64,000 nucleotides of DNA from Ophelia neglecta. Taxonomy: Eukaryota. Position numbers and translations under genes: made by a program. Location: the NCBI GenBank assembly GCA_965285935.1, contig OZ260665.1:14756001-14820000 (forward strand), read 5' to 3'. A model generated the notes under the pieces. It had not been told where the DNA came from and searched no databases. It saw nothing but the letters and a program-made list of their open reading frames with translations. Shown here piece after piece: positions 28,047-64,000 of the stretch (position 1 is its first letter; the number at the start of each line of letters is the position of its first letter).

Positions 28047-28199
28047 GCAGTAAAGTACGGAACCTGTTCTACAAGAAGTAAGAGCCAAATAATACAATTG
28101 TTAACAGACATTTGCACTGTATTCCGTCACCCTTTTACGATGCCATAATCAACTTCCATTCGAAAGTCGCCCTGCCTATGCCCTCCGTAAGGAGTCTCC

Positions 28200-29379: not shown

Positions 29380-31017
29380 CTAATATCTCAATGGTTCCAG
29401 TTCATATACTTGGTTCCATCCAAGCTGGGTAAGATGTCTGTATCCTACTTTCGCTAGGTATTTAGTCGTGTCAATCAATGGTTCTTTATTATACATGGAT
29501 TCATAGATAATGAAGGCGGGCCGGTAGCCCAGTTCAATCCATTGATGAATAACCTGAGAAAAATGAAATGATAAATAACAGTGATAATTTAATGCATATT
29601 ATTAGCTTTCGAAATAAAACTAATCGGAAACATAATAAAACATTTGAAAATAGAATGAAAGCCTAAACATATGAGAATCTACATTGGGTCTAAGATTAAA
29701 AAAACACACCAAGCAAGGGTTGAGAATCAGAACTTATTAGTACCCAAGAATCTCATTGGTAAAGAAATCTTTGGACAACAACTCACCTTATCGCCCACTC
29801 CTTCTGCGTCGATTGAGAGAACAGCAAACTTGATGGGAACGTGATATTTTTCAGCCAGGGTTTTGACACTCAGACACCGAACTTTGACCTTGTTTCCAGA
29901 TACCATAGACTCAGAAGTTCCATTTCTATTTGCAAGCAAATGATTTTGCATACTGCTTACGTCTTTAGTTAAAAGGAAACTCCACAAAGCCGTCTGCCTC
30001 GCCTATCGCCGCCTGCTCGTATTGTACTTTTTGTCTTTTATCTCCATAAGGGTCAGCAAATCTGAAAGAAACAAATGGCATCAAAATCACACTGTGTGGC
30101 ACAGCTTTATACAAGAGTGAAGAGGAAAGTCTTCACAAGTTTAAACTACATCAGAACGATGTGATCATTCTGGGCGCCAGGGTGCATTACTTTTCTCATT
30201 AAAAATATGTATAAATAGGTTTTACAAGAAGTAACCAAAAAGAAGAAGTAACGCGAAAAAACGAATTTCCATATTTTCATGGTATGTAAATTATGAATTA
30301 TGTTTGCGAATAAGCGTGTGCCTATTTTCTATGAATAATAATAGTGTTCAGATTTTAAATTTGCATATGGATTCTCCTAAGGTTCACTTAAAAAGGCGTG
30401 TTTTTATGATATAAATTCTATATAGAAACGGCATTATATGTTTGATATGAAAAATTCCTGGTTCGGGTTGTTTTACTATTCACCTTTTGCCATTCTTCTT
30501 GGCCATTTCTATCTGACTTGTAAGTGGTTCTACAAGAACAGCATCCCAGCCCAACTGTATGAAGTTAAGGGAATTGCTTGAAAAGGTAACCGTCATTGGC
30601 ACCAATGTCTATAACAAGGTGGGTAAACGGGAAACTTCGCCTGGACAGTATCCGCTTGTAGATGTAGAACACTTCTCCCGAATGGGACACGTCTATTCCA
30701 ATGAAGCTGATAGTCTTTTCAACAGTTTCGTTTTTCTGATTCGGGATGGAGTGAGAAACAGAGAATAGACGACCAAGCGTTTCTTGTGCAAGGGACACAA
30801 ATCCGCCATCTTTGCCTGCAGCCACGAGATTCCTTAATTCCTCATTTTGATTGAAGAATTGATGAGACGTCCAGCCTTCCTTAATATGCAATGAGCTCAG
30901 CTTGGTCCATACTGATGAGTACAGGAACAGTGAAACAAAATCAAAAATTAAAATGTTGACAGCAAGCAACGTCCCAAGAATGATAATTAGGTAATAACTT
31001 TTGCAATGCAGCCTCAT
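29380..31017 (-). CDS. FkbM-family (Methyltransf_21) SAM-dependent methyltransferase with N-terminal membrane anchor, copy 1; exons 31017-30484, 30061-29787, 29553-29380; two +1 frameshifts as assembled
   Basis: Motifs VIDIGANDG..SSNS..GWDAVLVEP, AAIG, LSIDAEG, RPAFIIYE; hydrophobic segment at ~aa 10-33; phase-compatible GT-AG introns (AG|GTGAAT..TTTCAG; AAG|GTGAGT..TCTCAG). Extra A in runs at 30581-30584 and 29977-29979. Confidence 0.85.
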
Positions 31018-32517
31018 CTTCTTTGGTTATATTGGGAAATATATTGGGAAATAAATCTAAGACCACTCGACTTTAAGTGACTGTGTATCTTCCGGACGGT
31101 GGCTGCCCTAACTTCAGAATTCAAACAGCCTGGAACAAAATAGTAAGTATTAAAATTCAAAATAGAATATCCCGAACTAAATACTAAGGCAAATTGTGTA
31201 AAACTATTTCCATAAAGTTTGATGCGTGATTAGTTAATTAAATTCCCAGAAAACAATGTGTATCTAAAATTGGGATTTATATTATATACATCTAGAAAAA
31301 TCAGTAAACGTGAACCTAATTCGTAAATGTTATGTTTCAATGCGTTGAAATTATTGGAGATAAACTGAAATTCAAATGACAATATAAGCAATTTCCATTC
31401 CAATGTGTGATAACGTTATATCTTAAATATCGGAGAATTGCTTATGTAAAGGTCTTATGACATCAAAGATAAATATATACACATATTACTGAGGGAGTCC
31501 TTTCAAATGGGTAATGTACTTATATAATAGGGACTCACGTTGGATGGATGCTACAAAAGCAGCCCTCGCAAATTTTGGTTTAAAATATACGAATCTCATG
31601 ATGAGAAAGTGTGTTCCAGAAATGAGGGGCTGCTAAGCACGAGGGATTTCTTTCAGCGTTGACGGTTTTCCTGCGTTTCTTTATCTCTAAATATATAGCC
31701 AAATAGTGAAACAATAAGTTCACTAATCTAGGTGATTTAAGTTCGGTACACCTTCTCTCATACCAATGCAAATACCGGTCAGGCGCCTGCGTAAGTCTTT
31801 CCTCTGTGTTCATCCGGTCACAATAGACGCAATGCCAGGTAGATTAGAGCACGCCTCTCGGATTATATGTGATCAGCGAACCATGCTGTTTGTGTTAAGT
31901 GGGATTATTTCTTAAGGTGAACGTTGTCTGTCTGCTGTGTACGGCGTTCACGGTGCATAATCACGTTTACAATCTCGTGTTGGAGCTCTGTCTCACGAAT
32001 TAATAATCGTTACACCTATATGCTGACACGTCTGTGTGGCGAGGTGCACACCTTTGGCACAAGGTAAATACTACAAAGAATTACTCAGGCTCAGATATAA
32101 TTATTAAGCCACAAAACATGTATATATATCAGGTGGCATGCCATATTCCAGCATTTTCATTACGACACATTGAAATTATTTCCGTTCCTAACTTAAGGAG
32201 TCATGCTTGAGAGAGGAGAAATGTCCATCCCACATATAAATGAAAATCTACTAAATCTGTGCGTCTTGTACTTACCCGCTTTTCAAAAACTCCACCAATA
32301 GAACAAAATGCTTGTGACTCGTGCACCTTGTTTTTTAACACGTTGCATCAGATAGCTGTGCTTTACGTTAGAGACTGCATATTCATTTAAAGCAACCACC
32401 TACGGGACTGTATGCTTGTGACTTGTGCACCGCTGCATTGGATAGCTGTGCTTTATGTGTGATGCGATGGCAGCATGCCAATTTCTGTGCTTAGTTGTCC
32501 GATAAGTTTAGGATAAA

Positions 32518-33013
32518 ATGGATACTTGTTGCGCATACAATTTTATTTACAAATCAGACCAGAATACCGGGCCTAGTATCCATCAATTTCCAAAAGATGG
32601 CAAAACTTCGGAAATTATAGGAAAAGCAGGTTAATTGGACTACTCTACCGAAGAAACCTGCGCTGTGTTCCACGTATTTTGAGCGTGCGTGTTTCGCGAG
32701 GACGGTAAAATCGTGTGTGCCTGCTGTTCCCTCTCTGTATGGGCTGTTTAGTAAACCGGACAGTCGTACGGAACGCCGACGAAGGCGTGGTGGTGTACCG
32801 TGTTCTCCGGCCGTGATATTGCTTAGCCCGAGCATTTGGGCGACAGACGACTGGGGACGGTTAAGATCCGAAACCCGTCCTGATGGTTCTTGCAGGTTTG
32901 CAAGGTTCCCCAGAAGGACTTCGCTTCCTTTTGGAGAATTTCGTGGGTCTTCCTTTTCCAGACAGTATCAGATTATGTTAAAAAATTACGTCCACAAATT
33001 TGTGGGGGAGTAG
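32518..33013 (+). pseudogene. Decayed THAP zinc-finger domain ORF (unit 2 copy)
   Basis: Same motifs and same lesions as 3530-4025. Confidence 0.8.
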
Positions 33014-34540
33014 GCGACGAGAACAATGAAACATACTGCCATTCCCAATGAAAATTGATTAGCTCTGTCGGGGTAACTTACTATCAAATGAATTTTCTTA
33101 ATGATCCAATAGACTCTCGGGTTTTTTTTTGTAATTTTCCTTCATGTAAAGGAGTAAGCGCAAAATGTAGGGAGTTAGTCAGAACTATACATTTATTGTG
33201 TGTGGGTCTTATGTATCAGACGTTATAGATTTGAATACAATTTAAGATGCCCACTCGAAGACCCTATTTAAATACCCCTACGTAAGGTGGTGACATATCT
33301 ATCGGTGAGGGATGAAATATATATCCCCTCCAGGCTCCTTCTTCCGTCACTTTCATTTATATAAGAAGGTCCCTTCCTTTGCGAAAAGAAAATACGAAAC
33401 TACTAGACAGTCAATAATGCATGTGTAAACAATATATCTTCATTGCAACACCGACAACAGAGATGACAGTGGTAATCTGATGCACTACAGGTATGCTGCC
33501 TTGTCATCAAACCCTAGGGTACAAATCTGACTACCTACACGTGTTTTGTAGCCGACAAAGACCGGTTAAGGCTTGCAGCCTTAAACCTCCAGCTGCTTCT
33601 GCCAAATGGCCGCCACGGCTCGTCGGCTGACGTTTCCCATATCAATATATTTGAAGGAATATTAAAAAAGGCCAATTGCAAGGTTAAAGTGCGAATTCTA
33701 ACATTTGTCTGACAGTGTCATGAAACAAAAAATAAAACAAATATGTAAAAAATTCAGATAAAAGGACAATACAAAGTTACTGATAAGGCATTGTCCGCTA
33801 ACTAGGTCCGCATTCGTCAGCAATCATTTGCTGCATCCCACAACTTGGCGTCTACTACGGACTTCTGTTGACATGCTCTTATTGGAAGTGATTTTCAATT
33901 CAAGTAAATAAATCCGAATTTATTTTTCATCTTTTATAATAGTCCCATTGAACTTCCGTACTATTTTCTGTTGCAACCGTAAAAAGATAAATCATGTGAA
34001 TTGCATGTTAAAAGGGACAAAACCATCTAAGTATAATTTTGTGCCAAAGCACTGGACCACTAGTTCTAATGTGCTATGGCGAAATACCTGGGTCAAATCT
34101 AACCAAATTATTGTGCGTTATTAAATCCAATTGTCCATGTACTTGTCCAGGTGTATTTGAATTTGTATCATATATATTCAACGTTTAGATCAGACAATAT
34201 TTAAATGGCAGCATGCTAGCTTTAATGTGAGAAAGAATTCCGAAATAATTTTCCTTCGTGTTGAAATCATACACTGAACAGTATCGTCTCTTTGCTTATG
34301 CCTGTTATATCTTCTTTTCTCTGAACTGTTCTTCAAATACATCCCATAAAGGATAAATGTACCATTTATGATTACCAATTAGACCAGTCAGACATATTAT
34401 ATGCATAAAATGCATGAACTATCAAGATTATTAGTAGTGTCCTTACACAAAGCTGCTCCTTGGACAATTGTCCTTTGCACTGGTTTCAAATGACCAGAGC
34501 CGTCACGCATTCCCGAATTCGTGAACTTTTCACTCCCTTA

Positions 34541-35706
34541 TGCTACAGTCACACGGCCACTTACGGAAGCTTCGGATGCTTACGGATAAAAATCCGTTAA
34601 AATCCGTATACATCCGCAAGGATCCGTATCATCCGTAAGCATCCGTATTTATCCGTAACCCAATGCGCAGTATCCGCAAACATACGCAGATCCGCAGCAG
34701 GAATTTTGAAAATCTCAAAACTATGGTGCGGATGAAATATACGTAAGCATCCGCAGAATATACGTTAGCCATGCGTAAAATACGTTAGCCATACGTAAAA
34801 TACGTAACCCATACGTAAGATACGTAAAGTCATCCTCAGGATACGTAAGATACGTAACTGATCCGCATCACTATCTTCATGGGAATCTGAAAAGAAACAG
34901 ATGACAACGTTTTAAACAAAATTGTATAAAGCAGCAAGTATTAACCTGGAAGTGATATTATTCATTATAACCTGAAACATAGTGAAAATGTGACAAATAA
35001 TAAATGCTGTCATCGACCTGGGAATATGAGACCCACCCCCATCCCCCGGCCAAACCCCAAAAAAATCCCCACCCTCCAGTCCAACCCCAAAAAGTTTTTA
35101 ATTTGTAGGATTATTTGACAATTTTAAGAGCCAAGCAAAGCTGAGAAAAGTTTAAATCCATTGCACTCATTTAACTCCAAAAATCACCATTTTCAAATAG
35201 GCACTTATTGGCACAAAAAAGTGGCACTAAAGAAGAAGATGTTTTTTTACCTATACGCTTTCTCTTGTCCCTTGCCTTGCCATTTTGTCCACGTCCCTTG
35301 CCACGGCCATCTTTGGGGGATGGAGGTACATGATGACATGCGACTGAAGCAAGCTCCGATCCGCGTCGGTTTATATGCGGATGGTGCGGAAGCCAGTGGA
35401 AGCCGACGTGCGCAGACACAAGCGTAACTCATCTGTATCGTCCGTAAGTCATCCGTAAAATCCGTAAGTCATCCGTAAGTCGTCCGTGACATGTGTCAGC
35501 GGGTTGACAGCGGATGGGCTCATCCGCAGGTTTTACCCGTAATATCCGTAAGTCATACGTAACATACGCAACTAATCCGTACCGTCCGCAGATTATAGGT
35601 AACTTTTGCTCAAACTTCCGTTATTTGAGGTAAAAATTACGCATTTTCATTATCCAAATATACGCAGGCATCCGCAGGTCCGTAACATGGCCGTGTGACT
35701 GTAGCA
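34541..35706. mobile_element. PIF/Harbinger-like MITE (unit 2 copy)
   Basis: Same TIRs; flanks TTA/TAA; one internal tandem unit fewer than copy 1. Confidence 0.85.
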
Positions 35707-37689
35707 TAATAGATAATTTATCTCTAAGTAATCTTTAGGCAGTGCGCCCTACATTCCTAGCCGTTCACGTGCACTAGTGGACCGCGTAGGGATACAATAC
35801 TAACGACCTCCTTTCTCAGATAATGATGTGCGACAAAGGTAATAATCAGAACCGATGACAATATTAGCATGGAAGTTGATGGAATAAATTATATGTGCTG
35901 CGAGCAACTAAAGAAATTGTGTACGAAATCAACAGTAGTACGAAAATAATGTTAGAAGTTTTAGAATTATTTTATAATTCCCTCGCGTACGTGGCGCGTA
36001 CTGAGAAGGGTGGACAAAATACATGACTATTAATTTCACTGTTTTCAATCAGTATTATGTAAATTATCAGTTTTGTACAAAAAGAGGAAAACGTTATGTG
36101 ACGAAAAACTTCATTAGGAAAAATTATTTCTGTTACCATACTATGTTCCCGCATCCAGTACTTGTACCATCCAAAGAAATATTGTTTGTGTTTTCTCTTT
36201 TTCAATTCTTGTATTTCTGACTTTAAACCCCAGTGGTAGTGTATCCCTGAGTAATTTGAACTAAGCTGCTGCTATATTGTGAGCCACGCCTTATACAAGA
36301 CAACAACATACGTATATAGGAATGGCTATTGATAATGCACAGTATATTCCAGTCGATTTTAGGCCATTTCAACTACAATATTTTTTTTATTCGCTACAGT
36401 TCATTGCACTTTTTCATGCGCTGTGGGATTGGACTTCATAGTAATTTGAAGGCAATGTATAGTGATATGTAAACTGGCATGAACCGTTTTCTAGGGAGAA
36501 GGCAAAGGTGGAATTAAACGGAGTTTACTCTCCACTGGGCTTAGCTCCTAATTGTCCTAATTGTTGCTTCTTAATGTAAACACTACACTAGATAGATTGT
36601 TTAGTGGGTTTATCAATACGTGGAATATACCGAGACTAAAATCAATGTGAGATATTGCCCTGTTGATGACATGTCAAAGTGTTTACCTGCAACTCGTATA
36701 TGGTATAGTATCAAGCCTGCTACTTGGTAGAATTCTCAGCCGCAGAGGTTATTTGGGTATTCTAGATAGTAAATGTATTCTCTAATATAAGATTCTTACT
36801 TTAACAATGATTAGCTTGTTTCGTGGACATACTTCTAGTGACTTTGACATAAGATCCTTGACGAAGGAAGACACACAGAAAGAGAAAATATTGTCATTTA
36901 CAGTCCCGCTTGCCGGAAACCGTGGTGATATCGGAACATTATCGCGAGAATGTCGCCTTGAACTTGCGATATTTGTGCGATAAATTCACGACCTGTTTCC
37001 GATATTTGCCGGCAAAATCGCGACCCCCATCGCAACTTTATCGCGACATCCATCGCAACTTTATCGGGATTTTGCTTAGATCGAGACGGGGGGAGAAGGC
37101 TGGTCACGGCATATGCCTATCCAAATTACTACGCTGCATTCAACATCTCTGTACTTCCAGGGAGTATGTACATGTATATTTCCATTAGGCTGAACTGATT
37201 TAAGAAGATGGATGTTGATTGCAGATCGGTCCTTATGAATCTGTATAAATGTGACTGGCTGGACAGCACAACCGGGCTCCGATGCAGAAAATGTTAAAAT
37301 ATCTTTTATACTTTATTATGATTTGTAGCACGTTGGCTAGGAAATGTATTGAACCAGCCCTGTTTGATGTCATCTCGTGTTAATATCATGGGCCGATCTG
37401 AAACATTCCAATCAGCCTGGCTTGCTGAGGGCTAACACCACACGCGATCGCCCTGAATGCCGCTAAATTACTAAAAGTTATGTGTGCGTGTTACCAGGCA
37501 CCTTATAGTTTGATTGTGGCCCAGAGACCTGGGTAAATACTGCCTAATTATGTCATTGCCTAATTAAACGCTTCTCACAGTTATCGAATACAACTGGCGG
37601 GAAAGAAAATGTTTTTTTTTACTGGCTGATCAGGAGGTGTACATCTCTAGACTGACTTGCTACAAGGGACCGACTGGTTACATATAGTA

Positions 37690-39332
37690 GTGCGGCTTGT
37701 TTGATGTGTTAGTCTCCCTTGATTGGTTTAAGTTTAAGTACAAAAGCCAGCCGACACCTAACGAGCGGTATGTTTGATGTGTTAATCTCAACTAGTCTCG
37801 ACTCGACTACCTGTCTATTGTATCAAAGCCCTTATGTATTGGCCAGTTCACCGACTGGCAATAATTGCCGCTAATTCTTTGATGAAAGTAGAATTTGAAC
37901 ATTATATGAGTACATCCACTATGCAACTGTTGTGTTGTTTGTTGCAAATTGGTTGACATCGGGTGATTTCCCAATTAGGCGCCTTTTGAGGGTGGCATTC
38001 GTGTGAAAACACAATATTGATGTGCTCCTGTGGCGTGTCACTTTGTTAAATTAATGCCTACAATACCATTCTTGTGACAAGCATGCCCACATCACTTCAA
38101 TATGGTAAATCCATAAAACCCCTGCTTATTTTTCTTTGACCCATCTGCCCATTGACTACACTTTTATTGAGAGGTATTAAAGATGCCACGCCATACTATT
38201 CATACGCGCAAACATATTGTGATTAGCTACCTAGGCGGGATGATAGTAACTGAGGTCAATCGGAAAATGATTTGGGAAGGCTACAAAATCGGCCGAAAGA
38301 CGATCGCCGATACTGTCCTCAGATACTTAGAAAACGGCAGTTTGATGGACACCCCTAGGAAAGACCGCTTCCGCAAAGCAACGCAAGAGGTTCTTAGGTT
38401 CATGGAATCTGAGCTCGATAAACTCGAGAATCGACAGGTAAATATATCTTTCACTAGATGTTCCATATTTGTATGTATAGGGTACTATACATTATAGAAG
38501 TTAAGCCAGACTGTGATATGTGTAGATGTAGCTATTTTTAAATTAGGATGTGCCAGTGCAGTAGAGTGTTTCCTTAGTTTATTTGTCAAAATGGAGTATT
38601 TAATATAAATTTTTTGTGTTTTTAAAGAGAAACCAGGCTTTATTGTTTTACAGCTTCGATAATTAAATACTTTATTTTAGGTCACCTCTACTGAGATGTC
38701 CCATGCTATACGCGAGAGGTTTGGCATAGACATACCGGCAGTCAGCATTCGCCGTATTAGACAAAAGATGGGATTCCATGCCGAGAAATCTCCCTATGAT
38801 CAGTTCTCCCTATGATCAAAGACGCTCACAAGCCGAAGAGGCTCGAATTTGCTGAGATGCTGATAGAGACTGGTGAAACATTCCATAATGTCGTCTTCAC
38901 AGACGAATCCGCTTTCCAGACCCACGCCAATTACCACAAATCACTTGTGAAGGTATGTTTGTCACATTTATCTGCCTTCTCCCCATTACTAGATTGTGTA
39001 TATCCGTTGGCCTAATGGTTATGGTCGATTGTAATAAATATATATTTTAAAATCATGCTTTCCCTAAAGTAGTTGTTTTAAAATTGATAGATAATGACTA
39101 AATATTGTTCATAATGATTATTATTCTCCCCTTTGGTTGCAAACACAATCGGTCACCTACAAGCCTAGCGGTGGCTTGTTTGATGTGTTAGTCTACCTTG
39201 ATTGGTTTAAGTTCAAGTACACAAACCAGCCGACACCTAACGAGCGGTATGTTTAATGTGTTGATCTCAACTAGTCTCGACTCGACTACCTGTCTACTGT
39301 ATCAAAGCCCTTGTGTATTTGCCAGTTGACCG
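37690..39332 (+). repeat. Pair of ~165-bp direct repeats (37690-37853, 39170-39332) flanking the transposase fragment
   Basis: GGCTTGTTTGATGTGTTAGTCT..CCAGCCGACACCTAACGAGCGGTATG..GTCTCGACTCGACTACCTGTCTA..TCAAAGCCCTT occurs in both, with scattered mismatches. Confidence 0.9.
38183..38952 (+). pseudogene. Tc1-like transposase N-terminal half (HTH + first catalytic D), exons 38183-38437 and 38681-38952
   Basis: MPRH..RYLENGSLMDTPRKDRFRK..Q|VTSTEMSHAIRERFGIDI..SIRRIRQKMGF..MIKDAHKPKRLEFA..FHNVVFTDES. Phase-0 intron CAG|GTAAAT..TTTTAG; second donor AAG|GTATGT; frameshift at ~38790-38820. Confidence 0.85.
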
Positions 39333-44400: not shown

Positions 44401-45597
44401 GTGATGATGGAGCTGCCCTACTGTATGCCATTGTACATACATTTGATTTGGTATTCTTGGGATGTAAATTTATTGATGGTGCTTCAGTAGTGGACAGCCT
44501 GGGATATTTGGGGCTTTCATGAAAGAAACATCCTAACCCTTGGGTGGGACGTCTTCTGCTGTTTACATTTATGCGTTTTCTTGGGCTTGAGTCTTGGCTA
44601 GTTATACCTTTAACTCTAATTCCTCCCTTTCCTGTAGTAGCAAGGACTCTTGTTGTTCTCAAATCTGTCTCTCTTTAAATGAAGCCTGTTCTGCCTTAAG
44701 TGCTGCCCTCTGTGCAGCTAATCTAGCCCTAGTCCTTGACACTGGTGATTTCACAGATCTGGAACTACCTGTCCTAGAATGAGTCTTGGATTTCAATTCA
44801 CTGTGAGAATCATTAAGACTGTGGTCTTCTGATTCCTCTATCCACTTCTGAATTCTATCTCGGAGATGATCTCTCACTGTTTTGACAAGGCCCGTGGTAG
44901 TGGCTGACACCTTGTCAGCATCTGAGCCACTCATGATTGATGTCAACAAACTGTCAACTTTATTCCACAGCCGTAGCTCCTTTGATGGACTAAATGTAAA
45001 CTCCAAATATGTCTTTCTTAAAAAATGACAGAATGCCCATGCCTTAGCTTTTACTCTTAAATTGGATAAGCAGGTTTTAACGTGTAATTGCACAGATTGT
45101 GCCTTCAAAATGATTTATGACTTCTGATCGAATATTTTGAATGGGTATTACCTACTACTTCTAGTGAGGAGGTAGTAACCATTACTTATATCGAGCGAAT
45201 AGTTACTAGTACTTCTACTGAATGAATGTTAACCAAGAATTCCATTTTAGTTAGAAGCATCCATTGCTTTGATTGAGTGAGTAGTAACCATTGCTGGTAT
45301 TAGATTAATAAAAAACAAATTGTATTAGTCTAAACGAAAATTATGATAATATTGATACAAGCAGTTTATGGTATCAGACAAGTGACTGTCTTCTTAACAG
45401 ACTATAACCCTTGAAATTGTGACCTATTTTTGTCACAATAATATTGTCTTTTGAATTGAGGTTGTGTTAGACAGTTGAGATATGGCTCGTTTATCTAGAA
45501 AAGAAACTTGAGGCAGCTTGAGGGAAGCGAGGTGCAGTGAGGCAAGTGATTTTCCTAAGTACTATCGTTCACAAGTCCTAGAATCCAGGACTTAACA
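41476..45597 (-). mobile_element. Decayed BEL/Pao LTR retrotransposon (unit 2 copy)
   Basis: Near-identical to 9260-13368; ORFs 41988-42569, 42787-43368 and 43925-44119. Confidence 0.9.
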
Positions 45598-52000: not shown

Positions 52001-55000
52001 GGGCCAGCGACGTCATGGTAGAGGGTCGATTCGCAGATGTTGTTGCGTTTAATACTTTGGGTCATACTCCTAGAACAGTCTGGGAGGCAAATATTGTTAG
52101 AAATGCTTTGTGTGCCAAAAATATTAAGTCAATAGCAGAGACTATTGGAAACAGAAATGTAATGTTATCCCATTTAAATATGTCAAAATGTACGTCGAAG
52201 GATGTAAAGCAACAGTTGATTCTGTCAAAATATAATGCAGATGAATATCCTCAGTATTGGACGTCTAAATTTGGCGACCTAGTTTTAAATCCTATGGTAT
52301 TGCATACAATGTAACAAATCAAGAGGCAAGATTGATTGACTTGCACTGGAAAATACTAATCTGTATATATCCTACAAATATTTTGTTATATAAGATTGGT
52401 AGGAGGGATAGTAATTTATGTGAAGCCTGTAAAGTAATTGACACCTATGAACACTTTTTTTATGACTGCAACTTAATTAGAAAGTTGTGGACCTGGGTGG
52501 AAACTGATATTGTGAACCAGTTCCATCAACCCTGTAAGATAAACCTACAAGATGCTATATTGGGAATAATAGGCGGGCACAAACTGTCTAATTATCTTAT
52601 ATTAATAGCCAAGCTATGTATCTCAAAATTTAAGTACGGCAGGCAATTTAATCCACAACTTGATTTATTATACTGTCGAGAAAAAAGGATAAGAGGTCAC
52701 TATTTTTGAAATATGATGTAAATGTATATGCATATAAAAATATGGTCACTGATGATACCCGTATTATACAGAAATGATTTTCCAGCCATTCTGTAAAAAT
52801 AGAATGCAGCTCAATTGGATAGATGGTACTATGTATGCATGTTTACATGTATATGTGTCTGGAAATGTCTAGACATGCAGGTTAATGGTCAATGGGACTT
52901 GTTCAATAGGGCTACACGATTTATTGTATAATGTTGTGTATCAATTAAAAATATATATATATAAAAAAAAAACAAAAAAAAAACTAATTGACATAAATTA
53001 TTATTTATTAATCCAAAAATTTCCGGTTATATATGTGATTCCTTTAGCAGTAGACTTAAGCTGTCCTTACCATTTACTCACTTAGCAGAGTCGACCCGCT
53101 TTTATACCAGTCAGATCAAATCATCTGTTCTGAATTTAACTGGTCAGATCCAGTGCCTGTCTGTACCTTAATTGATATGTCTGCCCTATTTATTATCTAC
53201 AGCTGACTTATAGCCTGACCTTACGCCATCTATGTAGATGTTTAGCTAGCTCGTCCGGCTTAAATGGCACATTAATCATGTCATTATCGTTAGTTGGTTC
53301 TGCCTGCTCCGAAATTTTCGGTAAGCAGGTCAACTCGACTGAGATTTCGACACTCGCTATTTCCCGTTCTTCGGTATTACCACTTCTTGCTTTATCTTGT
53401 TTGTGTTAGTTTTATTATGTCCCGTATTCCTGTTATTCTTGGTTTTGTATTAGTGTCTAACCTATCATTTTTATTTCTTGGTCTAGGTATTGGTATTGTT
53501 AATTTCTTTGATTGTGCTCTAGTCATAACTGCTAATACCTCCTGTTTCTTTTCTTTGTTTAAAGTTCAACGTTAGTCTGCTGGTTTCTTTAAAATTTCCA
53601 TTTCATTTTCTGCTGCTTGTACTGCAAATATATCTGGAATCCCTCTATTTATTTGATTTAATTTCACTTTCTGTATTTCATTAAACTCCGGAAAATTTTC
53701 TAAATCTGTGTCAGCCTGTGTCCTGTCAAATGTAAATTCGCTTCTAGATATAATATCTTGCATTGTTAATTTACCTGTTTTTCCACTTCTATGATGAAAT
53801 GTAAATCTATAATCTTGTATTGCCAAAACATATCTCTCAAGCTGTGATTTTCCTAAATTTTTAGTAGACAAAAGATATTTTAATGCCATGTGATCCGAAA
53901 TGAGGTCAAAAGGTTCCCTCGAAGATATTCCTTTAATTCTAATATTTTCCATACTATTATTGCAAATAATTTAAGTTTGGTTATTGGATAATTTCTTTCT
54001 GATTTTGTTAGAACTCGTCCCAAATACATACATTGTCTTAGTTGATTGTTCTCATCATATTGGCTAACACAAGCCCCTATGGCATTGTTACTTGCGTCTA
54101 TGGCTACCACAAATCTTGCGTTATAATCAATATGTTTTAAACCTGGTGCTGTGCTCAATTTCTCTTTTATTATTTTGAATGCTTCATCTGCTTCTTTTGT
54201 CCATTGAAATTTTGCCTTTCCGTGTACTGTTGCATTGTAAAATGGCTTTGCTATATCCGAAAATGACTGTATGTGTTTGCAATAAAAACTTGCGGCTCCT
54301 TTTATTCTTTTCACCTGTCTTTTTGATTTTGGGATAGGCATGTTACGTATTGCTGCTACTTTATCAAATTTCGGTGAGTACCTTCTTTTTCAATGAATGT
54401 CCGAGAAATACGATCTCATTGGTCGCTATTTCACATTTCCTTCTATTCAGTGTTAATCCCGCCTTGCTTTTTATTTCTAAAACTCTTTCTTAATGTTCAC
54501 AATCTGTTTTTGGGCAATTGTTATATAGTTTAATATCAATATGTCAATATATGCTAATACTGATAAGTCCCTTTCATTTCGAAATAGTTTGTCCATCATT
54601 GATTAAAATATTCGAGGACTATTTGAAAAACCTTTAGGCAATTTTGTATATTCTAAAGATCCGAATGTTTGTGTCAAAAATGCTGTATACTTTCCTATCT
54701 GATGAAAAGTCTTATTCAAGTCCACACAAGTAAATATTGTTGGTTTGTTTGCCCCCACTTTTTCTATGCAATCCCCTAAATGTGGTATTCTCATTGCTAA
54801 TGGTATCACCTGTGCATTCAAATGCCGTAAATCGACACACAAACGTATTTTTCCCGGATTATCTTGTTTCCCAATTGCTATTAATCTTGATGCCCATTCC
54901 GATGTACTTTCCTGCAAAATGCCCTCATCAATTAGCGCTTTTAGCTGTTCATCTACTTTCTCCCGCGTTTTCGGATTTAATCTATATGGCATGTGACAAA

Positions 55001-57377
55001 TTGGTGTAGCAGTTGGTTTTAATTCTATTTTATGTTCTGTCATTATTGTTAGACATTATTTGGGATCCTCAGATGGGAATAAATGTTCATGTTTTAGCAT
55101 CACATTTTTAAACTTGTTTTCCCATACTTGTGTTAAATCTGAAATTTTAATTTCTGATGAAAGGATACATTTAGTATTATTATTCTACTGTGTTATGACA
55201 TTTTTTTCTGTTGTTCGCTTTGTATTAGTATTGTGGTTCTTTATGTTTCCAATGTTATTGTTAGTTCTATTTTCTACTTGTGAAATACGATGTATACTAC
55301 CTCGTACCTCATCATTTGAGTCTGTTATTGGTTGACTTATATGAATATCATCATTCCATGGTCTAAATATCCCTGTTCATTTTTCCTGATTTTCAAGTGT
55401 CTAGTTCCCGTATTCATTATACGTACAAGCATAAGTCCAGCTTTTGCCGTAACAGCTTATTTTGCTACTAGCCCACCTTTCATCATTAGAGAGTTCCTAC
55501 CCTCTATATCACCTAGTAAACCAGCCATGTTGCCATGACAACCTTTTAGCAACACTGCCCTACATATGATCTTTTTCCGAAAGTCAGCGAAATGTTTTAT
55601 TTATAGAGAAAGTCAACGCCTAGAATTAAACAAATAAGATTGCCTATTTGAATACTTAATGAAATTTGTCCCATCACTTTTGCATTTTTCCCATTGCCCA
55701 CTTATAATCATGAAATATTCTGATCTTGTGTGTCAACCCCAACTTCTTAAAGTAAGCATATGACACTACAGAGTAACTTGCTTCTGAATCTACCAATACT
55801 TCCCCTTTTTTGTTTACATCTATAAGATAAATTGGTAACACTGGACACTTGTAATTTTTCCTATCTGTGTATTTATTTATTCGCTAGGGGACCCCCCTCC
55901 GCAAAATTTCTGCTCAATTCTGTTATTAACACGCCTGTCTTGACTTCTATGGGTTACCATTTTATCGCCACTTGTCAACCTCAGTCTACAAGCCAATTGA
56001 ATATGTTTTCGTCCTTTACAGTAATGGCAAATTACGTTTACATCGTTAAATCTGCAATTATCTATGTTATGGGCTGTCGATGCAGAAGTTCTACACTGCG
56101 GCTTGGCTCGCTGCCCACTAATTGGCCCTCTACTTGAGTCCGGTCCGTAATTATGATAACCGTACCCCTGGCTAGGCCTAATCTGTTGCTGACCCGATCT
56201 GACTTATTGTTTCTGCTTATTTCAATATAATTTATCTAGAATATCTCTTAGAGAGACATTATGACTAGAAAAATTGTGAACTTGCGTGTTTTGTCCGCTC
56301 TCGCCACGTAATCTGTTGTCTATGCCTTCTTTTCTCTCTGCTCGCTTTTGCGCATCTTCTATTGTATTTAAATCTTCTTTTTCGCACACGTATACTTGCA
56401 CCGAAGGTTGTAGTCCCCGTACACAGTATTTCGCGTTTGCCAATCACTCAAGACTGTTAGATGAAGACGTCTCCTCATATCGCCACTATATGATCCCACT
56501 GATTCGTCTCGCATCTATATTCTATCTAACAGTTCACTCTCGTCCAACATATTCCGACTTTCCGGACCATATTGTTGTAAGAATGTCCTGCTGAATTTGA
56601 GTGTGTCCTTTCTTTCTTCCGGTAAATTCCTTTACCAAGTTTTTACTTTAGGACCCAACAACCATGGAACCATCTGTAGTTTGCGTTCCTCATTCCACCT
56701 ATTGAAGTCCCCATAGTCGTTCAAATTGTCGAAAAACTCCTTCGCAATTTCTAATTTTTCGCCTTTATATGGTTTGGGAGCTAACCCGGATAGCGCCGTG
56801 TCGTCGGACCTGTTCCTGTTGCTCTCCGCTATTATCTGCATATTGTCTCTGTTCCAAATAACAATTCTGCCGAAAATGTGTCATTAGTCGTATTTCTTGG
56901 TGTTTCCGTGGATTGATAGGTAAATCTTCTTGGCTGTCCTAATGGATCTAAATACATATCATCCTCCATGAATCCCTGGCCATCGGAGCTTTTCGAACTC
57001 TCTTCCCAGCCGGATGTCTGAAAGCCCTCGCCATTAAATCGTGCTCAGTAACCCAATTTGAACCCGTGTTACTCATTTTCACACAAGGGAATAAACCCTC
57101 TGATCGTTTCTTTGTCCTCCCTCAGCTGTTTAGCCAGATGCTATCGAGCCTTGCCACGGTAATTGCGGCGTATTAGCTTCCGGCGTCCCGGCGTCCCATG
57201 CCAAGGTGGTCTCCTGATGTTATCGTCCGTTCATCAACGGTTGTTTTTTTGATGTTTATATATAAAATGTACTGAGCTCGTTTTCTCCGATCCTTCTCTA
57301 CTCGATTCCGCAACTCCAAACATATGTTGTTGTTTTTGACTTGGGGATATTTAGTTGTTTGGTGGCGGTCTTCTGTT
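46067..57377 (-). mobile_element. Decayed Ty3/Gypsy element (unit 2 copy)
   Basis: Same domains (RT 54603-55043; RNase H 53572-54341 including ERNYPITKLKL). Confidence 0.9.
48542..52982 (+). mobile_element. L1/Tx1-clade LINE (unit 2 copy), ORF2 ~49020-52709 disrupted
   Basis: TSD ACTAATTGACAT 48530-48541 / 52983-52994; same motifs with a partly different set of frameshifts. Confidence 0.93.
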
Positions 57378-57487
57378 GTTAGTTAACCACCACTAGAATG
57401 CTGTTGCAGTACTCGCTGTATTGAGTGAGTCTAACTTAGACTCTAATTTGTGAGAGGTATGTTTACACAGTATGTAAACGTACAGTA

Positions 57488-59197
57488 GGCTAAACCGGAG
57501 ATTACCATGGTAAGGATACCTTTATCTGAAGTTATGTTTGCCCATTTTTCCACAAAATACTCAGCCTGCCTCCTTTAAAAAAGGTAAACTTGATTAAGCA
57601 TTAGCCACCAATGTACGAATCTCAGATTCATGGGAGGCAGAGGAATGAGTTTGACTTACCGATGTTAAGTTAGGCACACACAGGGCTGGCTCAGCTATTG
57701 TTTCTTCTATTGAGGTTTGTTCCTGCCCACGTGCTGGCGCTTCTTGTCCCTGAATGGCTTTTGCCGGTGGTAACCGTTGTTGTTGTTTTGATCTTGCCAG
57801 TTATTTGGTCCTCTTCGGTTGTTTACATTGCCTTTGTCAGGATACTGTCTTGTCTTGGTTGCCGTCTTTGTTGTATTATATGCCTGCTTGGACTCCTTAA
57901 GTTTTTTTAGGCAAGTCATCCTCGAATAGCAACTCAGTGGGCTTGTTCTTTCTTGAGAACACCCGGCTGGCTTGAGAATATACCTAAGCCCATCTCTCCT
58001 AATAAAGGAGAGTTCCAAACTGTTTTCTCCTAGCGTCGGAGATTTGGCCAATTAGTTTACCAGTATCTTCCCTACCCAAGGTTTTGTTAGTGGTGGCGAC
58101 AGCAACCAAGTCGTCCGCCATCCTGGCTAGGACCGAGACAGCCCTAAGCAAATTTGTATGTGGTGTAAAGATTCTCAAACCTTTCATTTTCGCTTTCGAG
58201 TCCATCTGGGCCCACAACTCCTCGTTGACCCTTGGGGCAACGATTAATGGACAGTTCTCAGGTCTTGGATATTTCTCACCTATAGCCTGGGCTTCCTCCT
58301 TTTTTGAGCCCCAGAGAGAGATTTTCATCGATCATTTGATTCCGAGAAGGGGCCATGCCTTTAAGGTAGTCACCCTCTCCCTCTTTGCTAGGATTGTTTC
58401 CTGACACACCCTCATCTTGTGACTCAGATGGTATGAGTGAGGACAGGCTACGATGCTTCTTCGCAACTTGGGTGAGGTGGGAGGCGAGGAAATTGGGTCC
58501 GTGCCCTCCTCCGGGGACTTTCCCCGGAGGAGGCATATCTTCGAACTCCACCTCGTCCTCCTCTGGCCCGCTCTCCTCTCCAGAACCGAAAGGTCCTTCT
58601 TCAAAATGTCCCTGGAACTGGCCTTGTTGTCCCTTGGACTGGCCATGCTCTGTTAACTTTTGCATGGTGTTTGCAATAACAGCCATGTTGGCCTGAAGGC
58701 CAGAGAGCACATGGTTGAGGGAGCCTTGAGGAGCCTGGCCCGGATCTGAGGCCTCGATGCCGGGATCAGTTTTAACATAAGGAATAGGGGACTTACCACG
58801 GATATCGCTATCCATTGCCTGCATTTCCGCCTTCCATGTCTGGAATGATAACCCAATCCTCCATGATCCAAACACCAAACTATCCTCCAAATGAAATCAC
58901 AAAAAAATCCTATTTTCCAAAAAGTACAAGTAATCTTTTACATGAAATTGAAAGCCACACAGTAAATTAAAAACTCATGGTCAGCCACGAGGCTACAGCC
59001 ACTCACTAACACACTGTGGTCCGTCACTGACGAACGCCAAAGACACACCGAATGAGCGCGAGAAAAGACGCTTCTCATTTCACTCCGAGAGTGACTTGAT
59101 TTGTGGGAAGTATAATTGGTCTAGTGCTCAGTTATAATGTCAGGATTTAGTTTCGCAAGGCTCCGCGCATCTGCTTTTAATCAAAAGCCCTTTAAAG
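57488..59197 (-). mobile_element. DIRS-type remnant (unit 2 copy)
   Basis: ORFs 57707-58051, 57999-58328 and 58276-58890 mirror unit 1. Confidence 0.75.
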
Positions 59198-60227
59198 CGC
59201 CCTAAATATATAAATTCAAACGCCATTTGCAAAAACACAATAACAAGTTCCGTAGATGTCCAGGTTAATATAGCCTATATAATGTATATGGCAATGTTTA
59301 TTATTCGATGTCATAATCTATAGTGGGTCCTTTGAAAGACACCTGCATATGCGAATGTTTTAAAGCAGTTCCCCTATTCAACTTTTTGGAGGTCAGACTT
59401 CAGAAGTCTGGAGCAGGGATATTTTGCTTCCTGTGTGCTCTCCATCTACATGGAAAATGTGTCTTTGACGGTCGCGAGTCAGATTATTAAAGGCAGGGAT
59501 AGTACGCTTTTCTTCCAAATTTCTGTTTCTGGAATAGCAGTAAACGCAGCGTTGAATGCGAAATATAATGCATAGAAACATCATGATGTGTCCGTGGCTT
59601 CTACGGTGAACTCCGTAGACACCCGTGGCAGCTCACTTGTTAACCGTGGCTTTTAAATATTTTTGGGTTCTGTTTTTTTATGGCAAGTACACTGTAGTTT
59701 TATGTGCGAAAGTTGCGGCCATAGAAAGGGATGTTCAAAGAAGGCATATGGAAATTATTGTTCTACCAAATGATGTATTTGTATGCATTTGACTATATTG
59801 TTGTTGCTTACAATGAAACGCTAATCGCTGGGGCTAGTTTCCCAACAATGACAATGGCAATGATTTATTGGTCTGGTTTCCCAACAATGACAATGACAAT
59901 GATTTATTGGTCTAGCAGTAAAGTACGGAACCTGTTCTACAAGAAGTAAGAGCCAAATAATACAATTGTTAACAGACATTTGCACTGTATTCCGTCACCC
60001 TTTCACGATGCCATAATCAACTTCCATTCGAAAGTCGCCCTGCCTATGCCCTCCGTAAGGAGTCTCCTCCCTTTGCGAAAAGAAAACACGAAACTCCTAG
60101 ACAGTTATGCACGTGTAAACAATTAATTTTCATTGCACCACCGACAACAGAGAAGACAGTGGTAATCTGATCTCCCACAGGTTTTATGCCTTGTCATAAA
60201 ATCCTAGGGTACAAAACTAACTACCCC

Positions 60228-60440
60228 TGTTATATTATGTCCTTATATATAAAGAATCCAAACATCGACTAGATGAACTATAAAAATTTATTAACGAAAA
60301 CTGGAGACACGGACCGCGCCAAACCGATTGGCTAAACGGTGAGTTCTACGTCGTAATCAAAACACGAACCCTGGACTTATCTGGGATTTCTGGTACGTAA
60401 CCTTTACTACTATAGCATGTAATAAAGTCATATTATAACA
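60228..60440. mobile_element. 213-bp solo-LTR-like insertion (unit 2 copy)
   Basis: Same termini and ACCCC TSD. Confidence 0.75.
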
Positions 60441-61253
60441 ACCCCCACGTGTTTTGCAGTCGACGGAGGCCGGTTAAGGACTGCTGGAGAAATAAGTCTT
60501 TCCTCCAGCTGCTTCTGCCGCATTAAAATATTTTACGGAATGTCATAAAAGTCCAATTGCAAGTTTAACTGCGAATTTTAATAGGTATTCTTGAAGGTAC
60601 AACAACTCTGTAACAAATCCAGATATAAGCACAACACAAAGTTTAAAAAAAATAGACAATATCCGTTAACTTGGTCCGCATTTCCGTGACTAGTACCACG
60701 GACAGCTGTTGACATCTTCTCATTGGAAGTGATATCAATGTTAAGTTTAAATGTGATTAATTCTGTTTAATTTACTGGTTGATCATGCAGTAAGGTGATT
60801 GACCATTCAGCGGCCAGTATTTACCGATCATTATTACAGGGTAAAGGGTTTTGTTGATACAGCATGATATAAATTAATCAGAAAAAATCCTTTTTACCCT
60901 CTCTATAATCAGAAGGTATACGAATATATTGACACACTGTCTCAGTTTGATACTGCTAGTGTGGGTATTCTGTCCATTCATAGCCAGGGATTATAGTCAA
61001 GACAATAATAAATATTTGAATTACAGCGAAACGCGTGTATAACCTGTATAATAAGGTCACTTAATAATAGCTCCAACCCCATTTATGCCTTTGTTAACTG
61101 ACCATATATTTCCTATGTATCTTTTAATGAATATCTAAGTAATGTACACAATACTGTTCTTTGATAGTCTTTGATAGCACTGACTCAAAGTCCCTTCTAC
61201 ACATGATCAACAATGCACTTTTGCTAACACCCCGCCCCCACCCCACCGCTCAA

Positions 61254-62894
61254 CTAATATCTTAATGGTTCCAGTTCATATATTTGGTTCCATCCAAGCT
61301 GGGTAAGATGTCTGTACCCTACTTTCGCTAGGTATTTGGTCGTGTCAATCAATGGTTCTTTATTATACATGGATTCATAGATAATGAAGGCGGGCCGGTA
61401 GCCCAGTTAAATCCATTGATGAATAACCTAAGAAAAATGAAATGATAAATAACAGTGATAATTTAATGCATATTATTAGCTTTCGAAATAAAACTAATCG
61501 GAAACATAATAAAACATTTGAAAATAGAATAAAAGCCTAAACATATGAGAATCTACATTGGGTCTAAGATTGAAAAAACACACCAAGCAAGGGTTGAGAA
61601 TCAGAACTTATTAGTACCCAAGAATCTCATTGGTAAAGAAATCTTTGGACAACAACTCACCTTATCGCCCACTCCTTCTGCGTCGATTGAGAGAACAGCA
61701 AACTTGATGGAAACGTGATATTTTTCAGCCAGGGTTTTGACACTCAGACACCGAACTTTGACCTTGTTTCCAGATACCATAGACTCAGAAGTTCCATTTC
61801 TATTTGCAAGCAAATGATTTTGCATACTGCTTACGTCTTTAGTTAAAAGGAACTCCACAAAGCCGTCTGCCTCGCCTATCGCCGCCTGCTCGTACTGTAC
61901 TTTTTGTCTTTTATCTCCATAAGGGTCAGCAAATCTGAAAGAAACAAATGGCATCAAAATCACACTGTGTGGCACGGCTTTATACAAGAGTGAAGAGGAA
62001 AGTCTTCACAAGTTTAAACTACATCAGAACGATGTGATCATTCTGGGCGCCAGGGTGCATTACTTTTCTCATTAAAAATATGTATAAATATGTTTTACAA
62101 GAAGTAACCGAAAAGAAGAAGTAACGCGAAAAAAACGAATTTCCGTATTTTCATGCTATGTAAATTATGAATAATGTTAGCCAATAAGCGTGTGCCTATT
62201 TTCTATGAATAATAATAGTGTTCAGATTTTTAATTTGCATATAAATGGATTATCCTAAGGTTCACTTAAAAAGGCGTGTTTTTATGATATATATTCTTTA
62301 TAGAAACGGCATTATATGTTTGATATGAAAAATTCCTTGTTCGGGTTGTTTTACTATTCACCTTTTGCCATTCTTCTTGGCCATTTCTATCTGACTTGTA
62401 AGTGGTTCTACGAGAACAGCGTCCCAGCCCAACTGTATAAAGTTAAGGGAATTGCTTGAAAGGTAACCGTCATTGGCCCCAATGTCTATAACAAGGTGGG
62501 TAAACGGGAAGCTTCGCCTGGACAGTATCCGCTTGTAGATGTAGAACACTTCTCCCGAATGGGACACGTCTATTCCAATGAAGCTGATAGTCTTTTCAAG
62601 AGTTTCGTTTTTCTGATTCGGGATGGACTGAGAAACAGAAAATAGACGACCAAGCGTTTCTTGTGCAAGGGACACAAATCCGCCATCTTTGCCTGCAGCC
62701 ACGAGATTCCTTAATTCCTCATTTTGATTGAAGAATTGATGAGACGTCCAGCCTTCCTTAATATGCAATGAGCTCAGCTTGGTCCATACTGATGAGTACA
62801 GAAACAGTGAAACAAAATCAAAAATTAAAATGTTGACAGCAAGCAACGTCCCAAGAATGATAATTAGGTTATAACTTTTGCAATGCAGCCTCAT
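61254..62894 (-). CDS. FkbM-family methyltransferase, copy 2; exons 62894-62362, 61934-61661, 61427-61254; premature TAA in last exon
   Basis: Exons of 533+274+174 nt give a 326-codon frame. GAA>TAA at 61407-61409 removes the last ~51 aa. Confidence 0.85.
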
Positions 62895-63940: not shown

Positions 63941-64000
63941 TATATATATATATAAATATATTGACACAATCAAACTCTCAGGTGGCACGCCATATTCCAG
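63941..64000 (+). repeat. Start of a third tandem unit
   Basis: TATA..TTGACACAATCAAACTCTCAGGTGGCACGCCATATTCCAG is identical to 3130-3169. Confidence 0.85.

Follow-up and report, generated by a model that had tools for sequence, protein, structure and literature searches.

A (TA)n-bounded tandem repeat with two disrupted copies of an FkbM-family methyltransferase gene in Ophelia neglecta

Anatomy of the repeat

The analysed stretch of the Ophelia neglecta genome assembly, a 64-kb segment called the window below, contains two head-to-tail repeat units of 29.0 and 31.8 kb and the opening 39 bp of a third, and all of them are bounded by (TA)n. In a self-BLAST of the window, positions 3147-32129 match 32129-63945 in four blocks at 97-99.6% identity, which bears out, as assembled, the ~30-kb tandem repeat of the preliminary description. 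The unit-start motif occurs at 3131 and 63962, and the middle unit begins at 32129, where the first 16 bp of the motif are missing. The features of the repeat and its mobile elements are as follows.

3096..3130, no strand: (TA)n array, left boundary of unit A (junction motifs)
3131..32128, no strand: repeat unit A, 28,998 bp (self-BLAST, junction motifs, length)
32121..32128, no strand: (TA)4 at the A/B junction (junction motifs)
32129..63961, no strand: repeat unit B, 31,833 bp, without the initial 16 bp of the start motif (self-BLAST, junction motifs)
63937..63961, no strand: (TA)n array at the junction of B and the third unit (junction motifs)
63962..64000, no strand: 39 bp that begin either a third unit or a dispersed copy of the unit's left end, truncated by the window edge (39/39 bases equal to the unit A start, 0 mismatches)
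5540..6731 (B copy 34538-35709), no strand: MITE-like element with ~50-bp inverted repeats (inverted-repeat listing)
9790..12885 (B copy ~41988-45114), minus strand: decayed BEL/Pao retrotransposon pieces (PF05380, E 4.8e-12; ORFs)
17215..20881 (B copy ~49044-52709), plus strand: decayed non-LTR retrotransposon with endonuclease, RT and zf-RVT (domain matches)
21745..24325 (B copy ~53572-56203), minus strand: decayed Gypsy-type pieces with protease, RT and RNase H (class inferred from domain order)
36899..40139, plus strand, unit B only: Tc1/mariner-like DNA transposon with perfect 35-bp inverted repeats, a TA duplication and decayed helix-turn-helix pieces

Apart from one conserved gene of three exons, each unit consists largely of transposon debris. 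We take the element at 36899..40139 to be of the Tc1/mariner class because of its ends, and its helix-turn-helix matches are weak (E 0.11-0.13). In A the site of this transposon is cleanly empty, so the two units have separate histories.

The gene of each full unit lies on the minus strand, comprises 326 codons with GT..AG introns and belongs to the Methyltransf_21 (FkbM) family. Its outer coding bases, 29380 (end of copy A) and 62894 (start of copy B), delimit exactly the span first described. The splice sites of both copies are backed by their GT-AG ends and by homology.

30484..31017, minus strand: copy A exon 1, with anchor, stem, DIGANDG and VEP; one extra base (+1) within a run of T at ~30581
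29787..30061, minus strand: copy A exon 2, with SIDAEG; one extra base (+1) within a run of T at ~29977
29380..29553, minus strand: copy A exon 3, open in itself
62362..62894, minus strand: copy B exon 1, open (TIGR01444, E 0.014)
61661..61934, minus strand: copy B exon 2, open (PF05050, E 0.0074; TIGR01444, E 1.1e-4)
61254..61427, minus strand: copy B exon 3, premature stop at codon 276 (61409)

The gene had been considered the only host gene of the unit. No convincing host family was found among the 136 stop-to-stop frames of at least 55 aa outside the main retroelement ORFs; the same scan also missed the methyltransferase exons in copy A, and small exons of other genes may therefore be present.

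Disruption and divergence of the two copies

Both copies are disrupted as assembled, and neither has an uninterrupted frame after splicing. In copy A, the extra base at ~30581 in exon 1 leads to a stop at codon 151. In copy B, the nonsense codon 276 removes the last three predicted strands; the residue at this position is Glu in copy A and Asp in the orthologues P0004 and P0005. The 17 AG dinucleotides that lie downstream of the intron-2 donor of B and before its regular stop were considered as alternative acceptors, and none yields a product with the conserved GYRP strand. The last SAM-binding motif (hhhE) comes after the stop in copy B, and in copy A after the frameshifts. Thus, of the spliced ~326-aa protein that had been reported once per unit, the codon number, the three exons and the motifs stand, and the intact product does not; the proposed copy-number expansion of a working enzyme is not supported at this locus, because both visible copies carry lesions.

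The coding sequences of A and B differ by 11 synonymous changes in 215 sites and five non-synonymous changes in 760 sites, which gives a ratio of 0.13 with a binomial P of 8.6e-5. This shows purifying selection while the copies were diverging, either as paralogues or as two alleles later placed in tandem. Because of this selection, the lesions look recent.

The same strong selection could also mean that a functional gene is being amplified and that the three lesions are errors of the assembly. We regard this explanation as unlikely. Insertions of one base in T runs are the usual error of long reads, and both frameshifts of copy A are of this type. One-base homopolymer differences between A and B number one in the 7,766 bp of the least diverged block and 16 across the whole unit, and two of them in one 981-bp coding sequence would arise as background with a P of 0.007-0.10. 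An independent read sample provides further evidence; its contigs derive from three runs of unrecorded kind, the sample may not be one animal, and summed contig depth is not equivalent to copy number. At 30581, the entire contig depth lacks the extra base, and an exon 1 free of the frameshift therefore exists in that sample. The nonsense site is absent from the best-supported 40 of 188 variants, even though the sample resembles B at 29389 and 29409. At single places, up to 4-6 contigs per variant provide a weak hint of several copies. However, the explanation by errors requires three separate mistakes within 2 kb, one of which is a substitution, in units that agree to 0-0.6% over 7.8 kb. Moreover, in each of the three runs just 55-61% of the summed depth at 29977 is free of the extra base, and approximately 40% gives no sign of its loss; this is an indirect hint that a sample other than the assembled one carries the form with the frameshift.

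Divergence between the units is a mosaic, with 0-0.6% at 8-16 kb and 2.4-3.9% at 29-32 kb, and it does not fit one recent duplication of the whole unit without conversion or inter-allelic exchange. It fits two haplotypes of one locus equally well, and the assembler could have joined these falsely at a (TA)n run. Divergence of 0-4%, presence/absence indels of 3.2 kb, 401 bp and 52 bp, and a pN/pS of 0.13 are typical of alleles in polymorphic invertebrates. Furthermore, no contig of the three runs of the independent sample bridges a unit junction: on either side of 32129 contigs run out in TA, those at the unit end pass into TA repeats, and the unit start is preceded by such repeats (runs X2 and X3). 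With no junction bridged, the tandem order and the copy number rest on one assembly. Nevertheless, we consider a false duplication improbable. The window contains no N gap, its two end-to-start junctions differ from each other, one of them having a 16-bp deletion not seen in the other, a third unit start is present as well, and the animal would have to carry two different null alleles of a gene that is conserved across phyla.

The fall of A-B divergence at ~7.9 kb, from 1-1.9% to <0.6%, could also be explained if the left end of the unit were a mobile element inserted in (TA)n at several sites. The duplication would then have arisen by exchange between two such elements, no more than two units would exist, and the start at 63962 would be the original right-hand element. 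Motifs recognised by eye at ~3530-3760, which we presume to be THAP-like remnants, would suit such an element. However, Pfam yields no THAP match there even at E 10, the 25 longest inverted repeats listed include none in which the unit start is one of the arms, and the third start is visible for 39 bp only. We therefore rate this scenario as very improbable.

We believe, with somewhat better than even confidence, that a microsatellite-mediated tandem duplication was followed by birth-and-death decay of redundant copies, with no amplification of working enzymes. A single-copy segment between (TA)n arrays would have been the starting point. Template switching or unequal exchange between these arrays would have duplicated it head to tail; the anatomy is directly visible, and the mechanism is what the anatomy suggests. 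The copies diverged under purifying selection, as paralogues or as alleles brought into tandem, and each would subsequently have decayed, A by two frameshifts and B by a nonsense codon. Because both visible copies carry loss-of-function changes, a working copy presumably lies elsewhere, for example in the third unit or on the other chromosome. The locus is accordingly an ordinary microsatellite-bounded duplication with decaying copies.

The encoded protein and its candidate function

The exons encode DIGANDG, VEP and SIDAEG, which represent SAM-binding motif I and acidic residues, and an alignment of 32 rows shows at least 90% conservation of D136, G138, A139, D141, E162, P163, D261 and E263. 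Scanned singly, the window exons reach 16.9 and 12.2 bits against PF05050 (cut-off 22.7) and 15.9 and 22.6 bits against TIGR01444 (cut-off 37.7). Of the full-length relatives, 12/12 exceed the PF05050 cut-off and 2/4 that of TIGR01444. The read-through of copy B reaches 311 bits with a profile built from 106 homologues, and the Owenia orthologue (P0024) is 45% identical over 336 columns (E 9e-100). The original family assignment is thus upheld by full-length orthology to proteins that pass the PF05050 cut-off.

The fold was taken from the model of P0024 (pLDDT 91.3, helix 8-42) rather than from the window product. The top rows of a fold search with this model are methyltransferases (Z 12-14.8), including FkbM 2py6 (Z 12.2, rmsd 2.9, 164 aligned), and the model matches PF05050 clusters in the Atlas with a TM of 0.81. 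As modelled, the intact protein is predicted to have a SAM-dependent methyltransferase domain with the class I Rossmann fold, as a member of the Methyltransf_21/FkbM family. Because RNA and small-molecule methyltransferases rank at or above FkbM, the fold says nothing on the substrate.

The hydrophobic anchor noted earlier is a single stretch at residues ~10-37, with a best 19-residue Kyte-Doolittle mean of 2.59. By hydropathy and charge count, 20/24 proteins, that of the window among them, carry a single hydrophobic segment near the N-terminus, and the flank that precedes it is more positively charged than the one that follows; in the window protein this asymmetry is slight (+2 vs +1). From its N-terminus, the intact protein is predicted to consist of a short basic segment, a single signal-anchor helix, a stem and the methyltransferase domain, and a type II, lumen-facing topology is probable. 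N-glycosylation sequons occur at residues 96 and 224 of the window product and in 8/11 orthologues, a weak sign of a lumenal location.

We tentatively propose that the most likely job of the intact protein is SAM-dependent O-methylation of a sugar hydroxyl of glycoconjugates in the ER/Golgi, although our confidence in this candidate function falls short of even. Drosophila Star is a type II protein with a non-catalytic trafficking or chaperone role. A non-glycan substrate, or a trafficking role like that of Star, is likewise possible for the intact protein, whatever the reading of the locus, and we would not put it at even odds. In the fold search, the best matches are enzymes that methylate RNA, proteins or small molecules, and Star belongs to the Pfam family of the window protein according to Table 2 of PMC12403961. 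Against this, the conservation of the SAM-binding residues argues for catalysis, and a lumenal domain would be expected to meet mostly glycoconjugates. Methylated N-glycans have been reported from molluscs, planaria and nematodes (excerpt of PMC6935376), and the C. elegans methyltransferases responsible were described as unidentified as of 2023 (excerpt of PMC7614267).

Glycan O-methylation is a reasonable candidate at the level of the subfamily, and the evidence is circumstantial: type II-like topology, distribution in molluscs, and glycosyltransferase fusion in a distant relative. Of 20 longer relatives scanned, one is fused to GT2 and GT1/GT4 domains, and a neighbour cluster in the Atlas shows a GT9 fusion. 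The idea is independent of the repeat, and the locus adds nothing to it. A broader reading, which we consider speculative and rather doubtful, is that the anchor-bearing subfamily (DVSHSGE / SSNSFNF; molluscs, annelids, a nemertean, green algae and heteroloboseans) is the ER/Golgi glycan O-methyltransferase of invertebrates and that repeated rounds of local duplication and loss alter its copy number in several lineages, as would be expected of surface-glycan genes under recognition pressure; the locus would be a snapshot of this process. The conserved anchor-bearing FkbM-type subfamily of molluscs and annelids is a concrete candidate set that can be assayed from intact orthologues; the window copies are a poor source for assays because both visible ones are broken.

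Comparison with known systems

NoeI, of the FkbM family, is a bacterial sugar O-methyltransferase. The terminal sugar of the O-antigen is methylated by WbeT, as stated in an excerpt on WbeT/RfbT, and a protist relative has a weak RfbT match (E 0.0037). In contrast to the window protein, WbeT/RfbT and NoeI are bacterial and lack the secretory-pathway anchor, and their similarity to it is distant; their substrates are not transferable. The family members defined by PF05050, TIGR01444 and 2py6 have the class I fold and DIGAN.G, VEP and SIDxEG in common with the window protein. Differences are that the window gene is spliced, comes from an animal, and encodes an anchor, a stem and the subfamily signature DVSHSGE / SSNSFNF; identity to 2py6 is only 15%, and a PDB sequence search gave no match.

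Drosophila Star (PTHR34009) is compared here by its family label in Table 2 of PMC12403961, and there are no arthropods among the named matches. In the annelid Alvinella, the Star family is listed in the same source with 16 members as over-represented, beside carbohydrate-modifying families; expansion of animal Methyltransf_21 genes is thus already in print.

Microsatellite template switching (MMIR), a route to segmental duplication in yeast (excerpt of PMC2518615), leaves a microsatellite at each junction of a direct tandem duplication, as in the window. The yeast mechanism has been described as such, whereas ours is read from the junction sequence and could also involve unequal exchange.

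Orthologues are present in bivalves, gastropods, annelids, a nemertean and protists. Owenia CAH1792367.1, Pinctada KAK3102070.1, Lineus XP_064622927.1, Aplysia XP_005106555.1 and Ylistrum XP_060076054.1 are 39-47% identical to the window protein over almost the full length. Near-identical duplicates occur in Mya arenaria (three loci, 96-97.5%) and Dreissena polymorpha (two loci, 99.4%); each set lies on a contig of a single length, and these duplicates could themselves be assembly duplications. The lophotrochozoan proteins annotated as "Methyltransferase FkbM domain-containing" share the anchor, related ORF fragments share the position of the first intron, and a quick tree places the window protein with them in one clade (20 rows, SH-aLRT 92). 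The lophotrochozoan records are intact, whereas the window copies are disrupted and lie inside a 29-32 kb (TA)n-bounded tandem unit.

Architecture of the repeat array

The preliminary description placed the methyltransferase gene in a tandemly amplified unit, and self-comparison of the window upholds the tandem repeat: positions 3147-32129 pair with 32129-63945 in four blocks of 97.1-99.6% identity. A 16-bp motif opens the unit at 3131 and again at 63962, and the middle unit begins at 32129 without those 16 bp. According to the junction motifs, unit A is 28,998 bp long and unit B 31,833 bp, and the 39 visible bases of the third unit repeat the start of unit A without a mismatch. A (TA)n run is present at every junction. 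The difference in length between the two units is mostly due to a 3.2-kb element that is exclusive to B.

Features of the repeat units (window positions)
3096-3130, (TA)n run at a unit boundary
32121-32128, (TA)n run at a unit boundary
63937-63961, (TA)n run at a unit boundary
36899-40139, inserted element found in unit B but not in unit A
15689-16090, stretch present only in unit A, 401 bp, target duplication not evident
53969-54020, stretch present only in unit B, 52 bp, flanked by 5-bp microhomology
4369-4814, 28198-28650, 33372-33535 and 60066-60682, copies of a dispersed repeat

Each unit has two copies of the dispersed repeat (~160-450 bp, 64-86% identity), oriented alike, one near either unit end. 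Outside the array, the left flank (1-2340) consists of nested inverted repeats (70-84% complementary) and 32-bp tandem units and is foldback- or MITE-like.

Divergence between A and B, counted per kb, lies at 0-0.6% for 8-16 kb and at 0.2-1.4% for 16-28 kb; it is 1.1-1.9% for 3-8 kb and reaches 2.4-3.9% for 29-32 kb, surrounding the gene. The transposon-rich interior (8000-28000) is thus approximately ten times less diverged between the units than the gene region (28000-32128), a contrast not accounted for by one recent duplication of the whole unit. The mosaic may have come from conversion or from the joining of two diverged alleles. The duplication itself would have proceeded by template switching or by unequal exchange between the TA arrays; template switching at microsatellites is a described route to duplication in yeast (PMC2518615). 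Another account, in which only two units exist and the duplication passed through a dispersed element at the left end of the unit, is very improbable.

Profile matches, together with inverted-repeat and frame scans, indicate that the unit interior is decayed mobile DNA. It contains a Pao peptidase remnant (E 4.8e-12) and decayed versions of a LINE with endonuclease-RT, a retroelement with protease-RT-RNase H and a MITE-like element. Perfect 35-bp inverted repeats and a TA duplication mark the B-only element, whose empty site in unit A is clean; it is a recent insertion, later than the A/B split. Its transposase pieces (38186-38955) are decayed and apparently intron-split, and it holds an internal direct repeat of 160 bp (37694-37853 and 39173-39332, 94%).

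Several other readings of the unit found no support. By eye, 3530-3760 (and ~32520-32750) resembles a THAP-like remnant (CC..., HQFPKD, CSTYF and VPSL, in two frames with one stop), and Pfam gave no match to 3530-3760 even at E 10. The broken minus-strand frames at 25829-27024 (and 57707-58896), which resemble a DIRS-type gag, were likewise without a Pfam match at 25.8-27.0 kb. The idea that the whole unit is one giant transposon is not supported, as a terminal inverted repeat is absent among the longest 25 of 434 pairs. No further host gene family appeared in 136 additional frames of the window, in a scan that also overlooked the methyltransferase exons, so that the methyltransferase can be called the sole host gene of the unit only tentatively.

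Gene model and lesions of the two copies

Each full unit carries one three-exon copy of the gene.

Exons of the methyltransferase copies (minus strand, GT..AG introns)
31017-30484, 30061-29787 and 29553-29380, copy A exons 1 to 3
62894-62362, 61934-61661 and 61427-61254, copy B exons 1 to 3

Homology upholds this splice model, since two full-length relatives aligned by tblastn break off at identical points. In the cluster of a relative, genomic ORFs depart from the spliced sequence directly past the residue equivalent to the end of exon 1. Among 148 representative matches, 25 stop within residues 172-184 and 6 begin there, and 6 exon-2-like matches end at 265-274. No contig joined across either intron in three runs of one sample, where the two listed joints match other indels; these runs are silent on expression.

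As first described, the gene encodes a hydrophobic N-terminus and the DIGANDG, VEP and SIDAEG motifs. The claim of an intact protein in each unit fails for the sequence as assembled, because both copies are disrupted. Exon 1 of copy A has an extra base at ~30581 that leads to a stop at codon 151, and exon 2 has a second at ~29977; both are +1, so the two do not compensate for each other. In copy B, codon 276 is a stop (61409); the residue at this place is Glu in A and Asp in two orthologues. On the orthologue model this position is the end of helix 273-282, and the stop would therefore remove three core strands and one helix. None of 17 candidate alternative splice acceptors in copy B retains the conserved GYRP strand.

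Lesions aside, 11 synonymous and 5 non-synonymous changes separate the copies (pN/pS 0.13, P 8.6e-5). Purifying selection thus acted on working copies as they diverged, and the lesions came late. The account that we favor, with some reserve, is real pseudogenisation within a real tandem array, in which redundant copies would have been lost and a working copy would remain elsewhere.

One competing account is that the lesions are assembly errors in working copies. Both frameshifts of copy A are +1 within T runs, which is the usual type of long-read error, and the extra base in exon 1 is missing at full depth in the read sample. However, one-base homopolymer differences between the units are rare (1 in 7,766 bp of the least diverged block, 7 in ~20 kb and 16 in the whole unit), and two within one CDS would arise by chance with P 0.007, 0.047 or 0.10, according to the background rate used. 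We consider assembly errors an unlikely explanation.

Read evidence comes from the contigs of three runs, all of a single sample in one study, and the runs contain 52-63% of the window words; no RNA run was among those listed for the window. We take this sample to be another individual, which cannot certify the lesions of the assembly, because its full depth agrees with neither copy at several sites, such as 28743, 29764 and 29776. Among the 40 of 188 variants listed, 17 match neither copy and 23 are B-like; the nonsense site 61409 lies outside these 40. In each of the three runs, the extra base in exon 2 is missing in just 55-61% of the summed depth, a hint that exon 2 may also occur in its frameshifted form in the sample.

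At the unit end contigs continue into TA repeats, and at the unit start they come out of TA repeats; no contig of the three runs bridges a unit junction. A single site variant is carried by up to six contigs, a faint hint of more than two unit copies, given that depth is not a measure of copy number and the sample is possibly pooled. That two haplotypes were joined as a false tandem seems to us as improbable as assembly error, and pseudogenisation within a real array remains our preferred reading.

Fold, topology and relatives

The structure model is of the Owenia orthologue, standing in for the window product (pLDDT 91.3, pTM 0.84), and it has a long helix at 8-42, then a stem and an alpha/beta domain. 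Class I SAM-dependent methyltransferases head its fold matches (best Z 14.8). FkbM 2py6 matches at Z 12.2 (rmsd 2.9, 164 residues aligned) and takes rank 14 in a separate Foldseek comparison, and the Atlas puts the domain among PF05050 clusters (0.97 by features, TM 0.81). When the alignment was compared with PDB sequences, no close solved relative emerged, and the three matches returned were chance ones to receptors (E 0.27-0.75). The SAM-binding residues are conserved, and the orthologue model has the fold of a methyltransferase.

A single N-terminal hydrophobic segment with greater positive charge before than after it was found in 20/24 proteins. None of the 24 has a second segment after the DIGA motif, the window protein being represented by exon 1 alone; its own charge margin is +2 vs +1 in a crude test. 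These patterns fit a type II topology, and the catalytic domain would probably be lumenal.

Exon 2 alone scored below the cut-off of PF05050 (E 0.0074), as did exons 1 and 2 singly against TIGR01444 (E 0.014 and 1.1e-4). All 12 full-length relatives scanned are above the PF05050 cut-off, and copy B, read through with X, scored 311 bits against a profile of 106 homologue sequences. The closest named relative is that of Owenia (45% over 336 columns); others are from Pinctada (two, 62% alike), Lineus, Potamilus, Aplysia, Mactra, Ylistrum, Nucella, Mya, Dreissena and Dimorphilus, and more distant ones from Pycnococcus, Naegleria, Willaertia and Gefionella. An intact Ophelia neglecta protein was not among the exon-1 homologue matches (2/750 and 6/91 candidates; best identity 62%).

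In a quick tree, the window protein falls in a 20-row clade with all named animals (SH-aLRT 92), nested in a 28-row clade with a green-algal group (SH-aLRT 98). The two introns, the shared position of the first and the nesting among animal orthologues speak against recent bacterial horizontal transfer, and by these sequence comparisons the subfamily is an old eukaryotic one; the relationships also suggest a lophotrochozoan source for the window. Three loci in Mya are 96-97.5% identical (P0028, P0172 and P0173) and two in Dreissena 99.4% (P0034 and P0174), the loci of each species lying on a contig of a single length. Recent local duplication may recur in the subfamily, unless these sets are assembly duplicates.

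Predicted function and comparison with known systems

The acceptor is possibly a sugar hydroxyl, on circumstantial support. Methylated N-glycans are reported from molluscs, planaria and nematodes (PMC6935376), and the bacterial enzyme WbeT is described as methylating an O-antigen sugar. The glycan methyltransferases of C. elegans are given as still unidentified in 2023 (PMC7614267) and the benefit of methylation to the invertebrate as unclear (PMC6272458). In one distant relative (P0149, 856 aa) the FkbM domain is joined to glycosyltransferase domains of the GT2 and GT1/GT4 types, the only such fusion among 20 longer relatives scanned.

Within an incomplete coverage of the literature, we found neither a published characterisation of the subfamily nor a named invertebrate glycan O-methyltransferase. 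The boldest reading, in which the subfamily supplies the missing glycan O-methyltransferase of invertebrates and its copies turn over repeatedly, is rather unlikely. Expanded animal Methyltransf_21 (Star-family) genes are already tabulated for Alvinella (PMC12403961, section 18). The window protein adds a member to a subfamily that is annotated and uncharacterised, and the locus amounts to an ordinary duplication between microsatellites whose copies are decaying.
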